Below, in pieces: positions 2,571 to 7,629 of a stretch of 64,000 bases of DNA. The position numbers were made by a program, and so were the translations under genes. The notes under the pieces are model-generated. The model was given only the letters and a program-made list of their open reading frames with translations. It made no database searches and was not told the origin of the DNA. The DNA is taken from assembly GCA_036867785.1 (NCBI GenBank), contig CP145422.1:992001-1056000 (forward strand), read 5' to 3'. The stretch's first letter is position 1. Each line of letters opens with the position of its first letter. Source of the stretch: Plasmodiophora brassicae. Taxonomy: Eukaryota.

Positions 2571-2738
2571 AATCGGGACACTGGTGCGACCTCGAGTCCG
2601 CAGAATGCCTTAGATCAGCAATCATAGGGCGCCTCCCACATATACCGCGCAACACTGCCGTACGGCGTCCGTGGCGCACCAATCATATATTCTGCTATCT
2701 GGCCTTGTCTGGTCTTGTCCGTGTCCTGCGTGCTAATT
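2571..2738 (+). repeat. 5' LTR of chimeric element (AAT...ATT termini)
   Basis: Identical direct repeat of 7462-7629. Confidence 0.95.
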
Positions 2739-2751
2739 GGTTTTGGGCCCA
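2739..2751 (+). promoter_or_regulatory. Primer-binding site, copia/Hemivirus type (half tRNA-iMet)
   Basis: GGTTTTGGGCCCA abuts the 5' LTR and differs by one base from the copia-type GGTTATGGGCCCA. Confidence 0.75.
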
Positions 2752-2929
2752 TCCCAAGCCTTACCCCTGTCCCTGTCCCCGTCCCTGTCCCCGTCCCTGT
2801 CCCTGTCCCTGCCCCAGTTCCCGTGTCCCGTGTCCCAGCCCGTGTCGCGATCCAGTTCGCGTTGTGACCGCCGCGCCCCACGCTCGGTTTGTACCCGTCC
2901 CTGTCCCCCTGCTCCCGCCGCCCGCCATA

Positions 2930-3896: not shown

Positions 3897-6800
3897 TCTC
3901 GCGAATACACAACGCGTTCCCCTCCAAAACTCCGACCGATTCCCACATGAAGTAATGATCTCTGCGTCCACCATTCCTCCAGAGCGCCCCGACCTTGTCC
4001 TAAGCATTGATGTGTCCCTGCTGCTCGACAACGGCAGGACTGTGCAGACGAAGGCACTCATCGACTCTGGAGCAACGAACGACTTCATTCACCGCGATCT
4101 CGTCCACTTGCACAATGTACCCCTCGTTGAGAAACCTGCACCAGTTGACTTGGAGGTAATTGACGGGCGACGGCTGCCGAAAGTGTCAATGGAAACCGTC
4201 CCAGTTAGCCTCCGCATCGGCAACCACTCCTACTCGATCGTGCTGAACGTGATTGACTCCCCGCGATTCCCAGTCATACTCGGCATGACCTGGCTCACCA
4301 AACACAACCCGAGCATCAACTGGGCACACAGGACAATCGAGTTCCTCCGCACGCCCGACAACGAGTCAAGCGAATCCTCGACTCCAACCTCCGAAGGCAC
4401 CATCACAACACTAACCCTGCACGATGTCGACACAACACCCGAACGACCCGAATCCACTTCAGTCCCAGGAGCCTCGCCAACCGAACAGACACCGCCACCA
4501 GCAAACGCCAAGCGACGCCGCAAGTGGAAGCCCGAGATCCACGCCGATAACGACAAGGTACCTTACGCCGTTCCGCTTCCCGGGGATTGGAACCAACCCC
4601 AGAGTCTCAAGCGGTGGCACCACCGCCTCGGCCACCGTAACCTGCGTGACGTCATCCTGATGGCAAATCATGACCTTACCGAGTCCATGGAGATCCTGGC
4701 ACAGAAGGTTGACAGGTTCTGCGAAGGGTGCGCTATCGCGAAAGCCAAGGAACGTCCTTTCCCCTCGGAGTCCAAAGAAAAACAGTGGAACGTGCTCGAG
4801 AGAATCGACGTCGACGAATGCGGACCGCTTCCCGTCGCCTCACTCAAAGGGGAGCGATACTTTATCACGTTCACGGAATTTGCAACCAGGATGAAATTTA
4901 CCTTCCTGTTGCACCACAAGAACCAGGCGCTGACCAAGTTCAAGGAGCTCAAGACTCGAATTGAGAATCGCCTGGAGAAATCCATTAAGATCCTCTTCGG
5001 CGACAACGATGGGGTATTCATCAACAACGAGTTCAAGGCGTTCTTGCAGGACAACGGGATCGAGTGGAGATCAACGGTGGAGTATTCCTCCAAGCAGAAC
5101 GGTGTCTCCGAACGGGGACACCTGACGCTCATGGACTCCGGTCGCGCAATGCTCGTACACGCAAGGCTCCCCAAGCAGTTCTGGGGACCCGCAATTCTGA
5201 CTGCCAGCCACGTCCATAATCTCTGCCCCCACCCACGCGATCCCTCGACCACGCCCCATGAAATGCTGTCGCGCTCGAAACCTGATATCCGCTATCTTAG
5301 AACGTTCGGGTGCGACGCATATGGCTACGTCCCGTCCAGCCAGAGAACGAAGCTGGACCCACGCGCCGTGAAAGGCATCTTCATCGGGTATGCAGACCAC
5401 CAGAAAGGGTACGTCCTCTATCACCCTTCGTCCGGCCTGATCAAGGTGTACCGCAGCGTGACGTTCAGCGAAGACAGCTTCGGCGGCCGCAGTGCGGACG
5501 ACGCCCTCGCCGATCCCGAGGAACCTGAGTCTGGATACGACAGCGACTACGTTCCCTCCGGTGACGAACCCGCTGTCGAGGGGGCGCAGTCCGCCGCAGG
5601 CCCCAGTGAGGATCCGCGACCTCCCACCGAACGAGCCCGGCGTCTCTCCCGCAAGCCAGACCGTTTAGGAGATCCCGTCCACCACGCCTGGATCGCGTCC
5701 CTGCAACCTACCAACGACGATCCTATTCACCACATGTGGATAGGTTCCACACATCAATGCGACGACGACGATGACGCCGCGCTCAATGCAGATGACCCCG
5801 ACACTCCAAACACATATGAAGACGCCATGGCAAGTCCCGAGGCAGAGTTCTGGACTAAGGCGATGGCCGATGAATTGAAGAGCCTGAAACAGCACAAGAC
5901 ATGGGAAGCTGTGGAGCGACTACCCGACGGGGCACGCCCCATCGGATGCCGCTGGGTCTACAAGCGCAAGATCACCAAGTCAAGTCAGATCCCGCCGGAC
6001 ACCACCTGGGTTCTCCGCCATGACCCCGACGGTGTCACCTCCTACCGGTACAAGGCTCGACTATGCATACTCGGCTACAGACAGCGCCAGGGGATCGACT
6101 ACACGAACACCTATGCGCCAGTCGTCCGGAGCGACATCCTCCGTCTAGTACTAGCCATGTCCGTCCAAGACAAGGAGATCATCGCCGAGCAGATGGATGT
6201 GATGACCGCATTCCTCAACGCCCACCTCACCGAAGAGATCTACATGGACTCCCCGAAAGGGATGAAGGCCAGAACCCGTTTCGTCAAGCTCCTACGATCG
6301 ATCTATGGCCTGAAACAGGCCCCAAGAGAATGGTTCAAGGTCATCGACGCCTTCCTCGTTAACGAATGCGGGTTCCAACGAGCCAAGTCCGCATCGTGCT
6401 TGTACTTCAAACGTGGTCCAACTGGACGGCTCGTCATTGTTGGGGTCTACGTCGATGATATTCCCATCGTCGGACATCCCGAACTCGTACAGGAAACCAA
6501 GTCAGCCCTCTCGAAGAGATTCAAGATGTCGGACATGGGAGAGCTTCAATCAGTCATTGGCTTCGACGTCGATAGACAAGGTGGATCGGTGTTCCTGTCG
6601 CAGGAACGCTACACGAAAACTATCCTCGACACCTACGGCATGGCCGAATCGCGCCCCGTCTCGACACCGGCAGATGCGAACTTGAAGTTATCCACATCAC
6701 TGTGCCCGCAGAACCAGGCCGATCGCGAACTTGCCGCCTTAGAAGGCCAGCGCATCAACTATCGAGCAGCGGTAGGTCACCTAATGTGGCTGCTGCACAC

Positions 6801-7518
6801 CCGGCCAGACATCGCCTATGCGGTGAACGAGGTCTCCCGATACGTGCAAGACCCAGGGCCAGCGCACTTCGTCGCGCTGAAGCGAGTCTTCAGGTACCTC
6901 AACGGCACTCGCAACTACGGCCTCCTGTTCGAAGGAGGTGGGGAAACGGCCACACCGCTCCTGGTCGGCTACTCCGATTCTGATTGGGGTGGAGACCTCG
7001 ACACACGACGATCGACTTCGGGGTGCGTGTTCCTTCTGAATGGCTGCCCGGTTTCATTTCGCTCTAAGAAGCAGACCACGGTCGCGTTATCGTCGTGCGA
7101 GGCGGAGACGGTGGCGTCAACACTCGCGGCAACAGAAGGCGTCTGGTTGCGCAATGTGCTGGACGAACTAGGTTTTCCACAAGCTCAGCCTACACCTCTA
7201 CACGTAGACAATCAGGGGGCGATCGCGTTCGCCAACAGCGAAATCAACCACAGCAAGATGAAACATCTCGCGCTCAAGGACCACTTCGTCAGAGAACTGG
7301 TGGCATCCAACCAGATCAAGGTGCACTACGTCCGCTCGTGCGAGAACCTCGCCGACATCTTCACGAAACCACTCGGAAAGCACAAGTTCGTAGAATTCCG
7401 TGCGGCCCTCAAGTGCGTACCGCATCCCCACATGAACTTGGACTCTCAGGTCGAGGGGAGGAATCGGGACACTGGTGCGACCTCGAGTCCGCAGAATGCC
7501 TTAGATCAGCAATCATAG
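3850..7518 (+). CDS. pol: Pol: gypsy-type aspartic protease, then copia GAG-pre-integrase, integrase, RT (RVT_2) and RNase H
   Basis: ALIDSGAT...[17 protein letters not shown] (gypsy PR); [94 protein letters not shown]. Confidence 0.95.
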   Translation, partial: [1222 protein letters not shown]

Positions 7519-7629
7519 GGCGCCTCCCACATATACCGCGCAACACTGCCGTACGGCGTCCGTGGCGCACCAATCATATATTCTGCTATCTGGCCTTGTC
7601 TGGTCTTGTCCGTGTCCTGCGTGCTAATT
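7462..7629 (+). repeat. 3' LTR of chimeric element
   Basis: Identical to 2571-2738; preceded by the PPT and followed by TSD TCGAC. Confidence 0.95.

Follow-up and report, generated by a model that had tools for sequence, protein, structure and literature searches.

A long terminal repeat retrotransposon of Plasmodiophora brassicae with a chromovirus-type gag and protease and an integrase, reverse transcriptase, and RNase H of Ty1/copia type

RESULTS

Anatomy of the element

The retrotransposon described here lies in a stretch of 64,000 nucleotides of Plasmodiophora brassicae DNA (GenBank assembly GCA_036867785.1, contig CP145422.1, positions 992,001 to 1,056,000 of the forward strand); this whole stretch is called the window, and its first letter is position 1. 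Window positions 2571-7629 form a single long terminal repeat (LTR) retrotransposon of 5059 bp on the plus strand, in which a gag and a protease of the Ty3/gypsy type are followed by an integrase (IN), a reverse transcriptase (RT), and an RNase H (RH) of the Ty1/copia type. The element is bounded by a 5′ LTR (2571-2738) and a 3′ LTR (7462-7629) of 168 bp each, which are 100% identical, and is flanked by a 5-bp target-site duplication, TCGAC, with the left copy at 2566-2570 and the right copy at 7630-7634. This agrees with the initial annotation, which had recognized one element with identical LTRs and a clean 5-bp duplication. The LTR sequence, AATCGG...GCTAATT, has the termini AAT...ATT, not TG...CA. 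Contigs of other sequencing runs leave the window sequence exactly at 7461/7462, at 7628/7629, and at 2738-2740, and they continue into several different flanks. Because contigs from other insertion sites diverge at these positions, the LTR ends are confirmed, and because the flanks differ, the LTR family is present at several sites in related genomes. Within the 64-kb window there is only one copy of this chimeric element; near-identical copies, recognized by words of the element, occur in 20 of the 24 sequencing runs among those listed, which come from 9 studies.

The insertion point of the retrotransposon is the exact right end of a perfect palindrome (2380-2571), which has 80-nt arms at 2380-2459 and 2492-2571 that are 100% complementary and a loop of 32 nt; its arm includes the TCGAC duplication. 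In other runs, contigs part from the window sequence before 2167 and 2185, and the stretch 2167-2570 may therefore itself be a repeat. Two of the sequencing runs, X1 and X4, have no cover over 2414-2620.

The element has two open reading frames (ORFs), both on the plus strand. The gag ORF (2930-3874; 314 codons, with the ATG at 2930 and the stop codon at 3872-3874) encodes a capsid of the Ty3/gypsy (chromovirus) type and one CX2CX4HX4C knuckle. The pol ORF (3787-7518; 1243 codons), shifted by -1 from the gag frame, has no interruption, and its last 57 nt fall within the 3′ LTR. The initial annotation had taken gag and pol for one open frame; the stretch from protease to RNase H is indeed a single frame, but gag is separate, overlaps pol by 88 nt, and would be joined to it through a -1 shift. 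Inside this overlap (3850-3856), read in the frame of gag, is a slippery heptamer, G GGA AAC, which is a putative -1 frameshift site. The same GGGAAAC heptamer is found in the gag frame of a relative, the soil contig L001, at positions 1536-1542 of that contig. A stem-loop (3864-3896), whose 8-bp stem pairs 3864-3871 with 3889-3896, is located 7 nt 3′ of the window heptamer.

The 5′ untranslated leader (2751-2929) contains a run of CCCTGT/CCCCGT hexamers at about 2766-2815, and a polyglutamine stretch coded by CAG and CAA lies near the start of gag (2972-3089). In X1 and X4, which are guessed to be RNA, the contigs that cover the last part of gag break off at 3905 and 3907, with no loose ends; word depth is 86 and 209 there and only 7.2 and 10.2 in the contigs that follow, and the DNA-like runs continue through. 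Among the listed runs that contain the element, none is recorded as RNA. The pattern over 3905-3964 gives a weak hint of a gag-only transcript that ends about 30 nt past the gag stop codon, or else of differences between copies.

To assign the encoded domains, Pfam profile matches were used, and superfamilies were called from the Pfam models together with the domain context of the matches. Gag matched Retrotrans_gag (2.5e-13), DUF4939 (7.4e-11), and Ty3_capsid (2.4e-9), all above cutoff. Pol begins with a gypsy-type retropepsin (4030-4353), supported by RVP_2 (3.7e-9, amino acids [aa] 87-189) and Asp_protease_2 (aa 82-169), with the active site D93-S94-G95 at 4063-4071. A Ser/Thr/Pro-rich linker between the modules (4324-4560) is variable among relatives (alignment columns 200-285). 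It is followed by the HHCC zinc finger of the integrase (4600-4743), which matched gag_pre-integrs over aa 272-319 (30.3 bits, cutoff 28.4; model positions 22-66 only) and in which H278, H283, C312, and C315 are invariant. The integrase catalytic core and the copia-type C-terminal SH3 domain (4810-5481) contain D343, D406, and E442 and a GYxxxQKGY motif, with matches to rve (aa 342-434) and SH3_retrovirus (aa 497-565; 1.7e-25, 89.2 bits). The copia-type reverse transcriptase (5998-6672) matched RVT_2 (1.8e-59, aa 738-962) and has YVDD at aa 888-891. The copia-type RNase H (6784-7386) has no match to any Pfam model and is marked by invariant columns, namely, TRPDI (aa 1005-1009), DSD, E1105, D1141, and ADIFTK (aa 1189-1194); TRPDI and ADxxTK have been named as Copia motifs (PMC5445492). 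The order in pol is protease, integrase, RT, and RNase H, with rve preceding RVT_2. In the Pfam scan, no match to Retrotran_gag_2, Pol_BBD, or RVT_1 was found in the window's gag and pol and none to RT_RNaseH, Integrase_H2C2, or a chromodomain in its pol. The motifs quoted in the initial annotation for gag, the protease, and the copia part were all found in the ORF translations, and the per-domain profile search bore out its assignment of a gypsy-type gag and protease and a copia-type integrase, RT, and RNase H in the order IN-RT-RH. In an alignment of four members of pol, the catalytic HHCC, D-D-E, YVDD, and RNase H acidic residues are invariant; the protease DSG was counted with them, although one member, the metagenome protein P0003, reads DGA.

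Directly 3′ of the 5′ LTR is a primer-binding-site-like motif, GGTTTTGGGCCC (2739-2750). Its counterpart in L001, GGTTATGAGCCC, lies at positions 585-596 of that contig, upstream of the L001 gag, and is complementary at 12 of 12 positions to positions 30-41, in the anticodon arm, of an initiator tRNA-Met, for which E. coli metZ served as a stand-in that may not match the tRNA of the host. Among 1391 control windows, the score never exceeded 10. Priming by the initiator tRNA's anticodon stem-loop is given, in passages of two papers, as defining the hemiviruses copia, Ty5, 1731, and Osser (PMC1181622, PMC5371799). If such half-tRNA priming holds, the primer site would travel with the copia replication block. 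No complement of at least 7 nt, such as Tf1-like self-priming would use, was found between the LTR and the 30 nt after it, and no tRNA genes were found within the window. At the other end of the element, a polypurine tract, GGTCGAGGGGAGG (7449-7461), abuts the 3′ LTR and also codes for the conserved C terminus of pol, VEG(G/R). Identical LTRs, a target duplication, a primer-site-like motif, a purine tract, and intact ORFs with their catalytic residues are thus all present, as would be expected of an autonomous and recently inserted element, and judged by its sequence the element at this site is intact and young.

Relatives with the same join

A search with the protease-to-integrase stretch as the query returned 21 proteins among 3080 candidates. 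Three metagenome proteins, P0001, P0002, and P0003, are 57, 55, and 50% identical to the whole window pol and contain RVP_2 or Asp_protease_2, then gag_pre-integrs, rve, and RVT_2. They align with the window, in one ORF, through the protease, a variable linker, and a motif containing WHHRLGHRN into the copia IN-RT-RH part. A scan of metagenome contigs gave 593 pattern matches, of which three were relatives; one of them is L001 (4769 bp), which combines a gag of Ty3_capsid type with a -1-frame pol that contains RVP_2, gag_pre-integrs, rve, and RVT_2. When 1.84 billion representatives were searched exhaustively, the query being the protease together with the pre-integrase, 3640 matches had E values up to 0.001. 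This search added P0036, P0037, and P0041, each with a copia integrase after a protease; P0036 also has its CCHC knuckle in frame with the protease. The gag protein P0022 is 45% identical to that of the window and is encoded on a contig of 10556 bases, the same size and source as the contig of P0001; P0022 and P0001 probably come from one contig. No relatives were found among 14 pattern matches in viral contigs, and the ESM Atlas gave only ordinary copia clusters with Pol_BBD, every score being under 0.9, and no relative of the chimeric element.

Because the same protease and copia pre-integrase occur together in P0001-P0003, L001, P0036, P0037, and P0041, the join is inherited and not accidental. 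Since the members are only 44-57% identical, the swap is old and not recent in this genome. The initial annotation had proposed a module swap between the two superfamilies that gave rise to a lineage; the join in relatives from independent assemblies supports this, with the change that the swap is moved back in time.

The protease active site varies in this set; L001 reads LVDDGASS at about 1695-1715 and the N terminus of P0003 reads LIDGAAS. These DDG and DGA forms are either unusual active sites or signs of inactive copies.

Origin of the gag and protease

Among the near-length relatives of gag, 14 of 14 carry the gypsy gag family PF03732 and none carries a copia gag family. When longer proteins were searched with gag, scoring of 7986 candidates brought out a single relative, P0186. 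This protein, the complete polyprotein of a chromovirus, contains RVT_1, RT_RNaseH, Integrase_H2C2, rve, SH3_Tf2-1, and Chromo domains. Its gag is 45% identical to the window gag over 249 residues, which is as close as the gags of other chimeric members, and its protease region is 33% identical over 178 residues, up to NPxINW, after which P0186 continues into RVT_1 and the window element into the linker. The context of the best 150 of the 3640 matches from the exhaustive search was a protease followed by a gypsy RT in 30, a protease followed by a copia integrase in 3, and an integrase without a protease in 1, with 116 too short to tell. Eight of the long gypsy matches were scanned; RVT_1 passed in seven of them and Chromo in six.

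A quick-search tree of the IN-RT-RH part (20 rows; unrooted, midpoint only) placed five chimeric rows and P0009 in one clade with a Shimodaira-Hasegawa-like approximate likelihood ratio test (SH-aLRT) value of 100. P0009 lies at zero distance from L001, of which it is probably the product, and is not an independent row. The classical copia protein P0004 is the sister of the chimeric clade, with other classical copia proteins around it. Trees were also made for the protease (41 rows, quick search) and for gag (31 rows), and an approximately unbiased test did not reject a single clade for the eight chimeric proteases (p 0.415).

Module boundary in other sequencing runs

Similarity to chromoviruses ends at about aa 179 of pol (nt 4323, at NPSINW), and similarity to copia starts at about aa 259 (nt 4561). 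The classical copia P0004 matches gag_pre-integrs from model position 1 (1-66), whereas the window matches only from position 22; the old breakpoint therefore lies at the start of the pre-integrase domain. The position of this ancient module boundary coincides with a break in the contig graphs of other sequencing runs, a 30-nt node at 4564-4593 that marks the start of the conserved copia-type part, where P259 is invariant. In 4 of 4 runs (X1, X4, X5, and X17), 4593 is the last position of some contigs and 4564 the first position of others. The left-hand contigs at 4593 in the four runs are identical or near-identical to the window over the end of gag or the protease, plus the linker. Word depth to the left of the node, in the protease-linker region, was 99 in X5 and 478 in X17; to the right it was 334-413 and about 1650-2200, respectively, and in unique flank about 59-61 and 355-373, although the word depth of contigs does not measure copy number and gives no basis for ranking the parts of a gene. 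In X5, nothing else was present at ≥90% likeness over 3656-4483, and X17 contains a variant with 64 differences in 673 letters that diverges before 4554. There is a hint here that several copies share the IN-RT-RH block and differ, or are deleted, upstream of 4564.

These observations bear on whether the gag-protease part is still being exchanged in the host, such that most copies with the window's IN-RT-RH block would carry other sequence to the left of 4564. The recurrence of the break in every one of the four runs, the higher depth on its right side, and the lack of any other sequence at that likeness over 3656-4483 in X5, together with the diverging variant in X17, are all consistent with live exchange. 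However, contig depth gives no copy number, the alternative left-hand sequence was never seen, and a hypervariable linker or deleted, non-autonomous copies would yield the same break in the graph. Live exchange is therefore entertained here as a possibility that we lean against.

Neighboring features in the window

A second young element lies 88 bp downstream of the chimeric element, at 7718-14837. It is a true Ty3/gypsy element whose 180-bp LTRs (7718-7897 and 14658-14837) show 100% identity and which has an ORF resembling gag, a protease, RVT_1, RT_RNaseH, and Integrase_H2C2; its gag and pol have no close likeness to the chimeric element's, and tblastn gave no match between the two. Inside the second element are a tandem array of about seven 147-bp units (9882-11063) and a short-period GTCC-rich repeat (the two together spanning 9882-11363), bracketed by identical 92-bp direct repeats at 9906-9997 and 11272-11363. 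Upstream of the chimeric element, one X1 contig skips 55 nt with GT..AG ends at 2049-2105, which looks like the spliced short intron of a host gene. Further host genes in the window are one for a protein with PUB and RanBP zinc-finger domains (34276-36066), a cysteinyl-tRNA synthetase fragment on the minus strand (49393-50598), and an actin gene on the minus strand (52544-53959), whose ORF is uninterrupted over about 370 codons. The G+C content along the window is 53-71%.

DISCUSSION

Collectively, these findings very probably describe an intact, autonomous lineage of LTR retrotransposons in which a chromovirus-type gag, a putative -1 frameshift, and a retropepsin are fused to a Ty1/copia-type integrase, RT, and RNase H. 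The simplest reading is that the gag-protease part was acquired once, in an ancient event that these comparisons would place on a copia backbone.

Several observations weigh against parts of this interpretation. The stem-loops that follow the heptamer are no better than those of shuffled sequence (z -1.86 and +0.35, the window's being -1.86); since the fold energy does not stand out from the shuffles, the evidence for frameshifting is the heptamer and its conservation, not the fold. The primer-site-like motif of the window differs from that of L001 at 2 of 12 positions, and the comparison was made through a bacterial stand-in tRNA. The rve match in the window is below the Pfam cutoff (26.6 versus 32.6 bits), the DSG of the window protease is replaced by DDG in L001 and by DGA in P0003, and the superfamily calls draw on Pfam models and domain context rather than on GyDB or REXdb reference sets. 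The AAT...ATT ends of the LTRs differ from the TG...CA that is usual in Ty1/copia and Ty3/gypsy alike. The age of the insertion is only loosely bounded by 168 identical LTR positions, and that the element is active today we infer. No contig among those listed bridges 4564-4593 with 31 letters on either side, so that the join is supported mainly by the window assembly and by independent relatives, not by reads. Finally, the protease and gag trees are poorly resolved, the chimeric label needs four changes on the free protease tree, and P0108, a gag from a gypsy context, is placed among the chimeric gags; for these reasons there may have been more than one exchange.

The element would be propagated by ordinary LTR retrotransposition, run by parts of two superfamilies. 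Genomic RNA would be driven by the LTR and Gag translated from it, with a fraction of ribosomes slipping -1 at G GGA AAC to make Gag-Pol, and the polyprotein would be cut by the gypsy-type protease. The copia-type RT would start minus-strand DNA from a primer paired at the motif beside the 5′ LTR, in a manner resembling the half-tRNA mode that hemiviruses like copia and Ty5 use with the anticodon arm of initiator tRNA-Met. The plus strand would be started at the purine tract, and the copia-type integrase would insert the DNA and leave the 5-bp duplication. The join itself may have formed once, long ago, probably through template switching between co-packaged chromovirus and copia RNAs, and would have been inherited since.

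The same event can be read with donor and recipient reversed, as a chromovirus backbone into which an IN-RT-RH block of copia was taken up. About one-third of the element at its 5′ end (gag, the -1 frameshift, and the protease) is gypsy-like, and the LTR ends fit neither superfamily, which leaves room for this direction. However, the motif beside the 5′ LTR resembles the half-tRNA site of hemiviruses, that is, of copia elements, as a passage of one paper describes it (PMC1181622), and both the 5-bp duplication and the purine tract inside the copia-type end of pol go with the copia part. We consider the reversed direction unlikely. It is very unlikely that no swap took place at all and that the element represents a deep copia branch whose ancestral gag and protease merely resemble those of gypsy. 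Capsids are homologous across all LTR retroelements, and so are proteases, and the weakly resolved protease and gag trees leave some space for such a branch, as does the similarity of Gag across groups seen with HHpred in part of one study (PMC12440569). Against this, the window gag is 45% identical to a true chromovirus gag, while the RTs of the two superfamilies share no Pfam model here, and the chimeric clade is nested among classical copia elements with Retrotran_gag_2 and Pol_BBD, not basal to them, albeit in a tree that is unrooted. Last, a one-off at this locus without any lineage, whether produced by recent recombination, by one insertion nesting in another, or by a false join in the assembly, would agree with the single copy in the window, the unbridged node at 4564-4593, and the modest protease-linker depth (in X5 and X17, two DNA-like runs, only about 1.3-1.6 times the flank), but is hardly credible given the single LTR pair, the clean target duplication, the unbroken ORF, the single chimeric clade in the IN-RT-RH tree, and the same join in independently assembled relatives at 44-57% identity. 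A single-copy junction, which the initial annotation had said would downgrade the element to a one-off recombinant, is answered by those relatives, with the depth ratio as the part that speaks for it. Nested insertion and misassembly were rejected on account of the single LTR pair, the unbroken ORF, and the recurrence of the join.

A lineage in which an ancient swap joined a chromoviral gag and protease to a copia replicase would imply that particle-forming and replication modules from different superfamilies can be swapped and remain able to cooperate. It would also be a test bed, provided by nature, of the features of a foreign Pol that Gag and protease need to recognize, with cleavage sites, packaging, and primer annealing as examples. 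Copia and gypsy elements are treated as cleanly separate superfamilies (Pseudoviridae and Metaviridae), classifiers go by domain models, and an element whose signals are mixed is usually set aside as a nested insertion; such a lineage warns that real families can be hidden behind the "mixture" calls of annotation pipelines. The initial annotation knew of no described family of this kind, and in line with this, no description of a gypsy gag-protease with a copia IN-RT-RH was found in the full-text literature, a search whose scope did not extend to Repbase, Dfam, or the supplements of papers, which may hold such families unnoticed. On balance, we are inclined to regard the architecture as truly undescribed.

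A more far-reaching view would hold that the element exemplifies a third LTR retrotransposon architecture, in which replication is left to a copia block (primer site, integrase, RT, and RNase H) and particle formation to a chromoviral block (gag, -1 frameshift, and protease). Such an architecture would be old, would occur in soil and plant-associated eukaryotes, and would have a block boundary that is still a live exchange point, the copies in the host having a single IN-RT-RH in common and differing upstream of 4564. This view is doubtful as a whole; if it were true, the capsid-protease and replicase modules of different retroelement families would be interchangeable in nature.

Compared with known systems, the element resembles Ty1/copia (Pseudoviridae) in its PR-IN-RT-RH order (PR, protease), its RVT_2-type RT, its HHCC finger, its GKGY-type SH3 end, its TRPDI, YVDD, and ADxxTK motifs, and its 5-bp duplication. 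A likeness to the hemiviruses (copia, Ty5, 1731, and Osser) is suggested by the complementarity to the anticodon arm of the initiator tRNA that is seen in its relative L001, from whose motif that of the window differs at 2 of 12 positions. Unlike Ty1/copia, it lacks the Retrotran_gag_2 gag and the Pol_BBD protease, both of which are carried by its classical neighbors (P0004 and others); its gag and pol are split by a putative -1 frameshift, its gag_pre-integrs match is partial (22-66), and its LTRs end in AAT...ATT. With chromoviruses of the Tf1/Tf2/sushi kind (e.g., P0186 and a fish "Tf2-6 polyprotein," P0017), it shares a gag with DUF4939, Retrotrans_gag, and Ty3_capsid matches and one CCHC knuckle, as well as an RVP_2 protease that ends in ILGxxWLxxxNPxINW. 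Past the protease, however, chromoviruses continue into RVT_1, RT_RNaseH, Integrase_H2C2, rve, SH3_Tf2-1, and Chromo, whereas the window element continues into a copia IN-RT-RH. Gmr1-like gypsy elements likewise have the integrase upstream of the RT, but they keep a gypsy RT and integrase, and in the window element both the RT (RVT_2) and the integrase are of the copia type. "Complex" or "chimeric" LTR structures of fungi, in which domains of both superfamilies lie between two LTRs, are described as multiple insertions into one locus with extra domains (PMC3248453, PMC5445492), and one survey filtered them out (PMC5445492). In contrast to those structures, the element described here has one non-redundant set of domains, one ORF across the join, and relatives in which the join is conserved.

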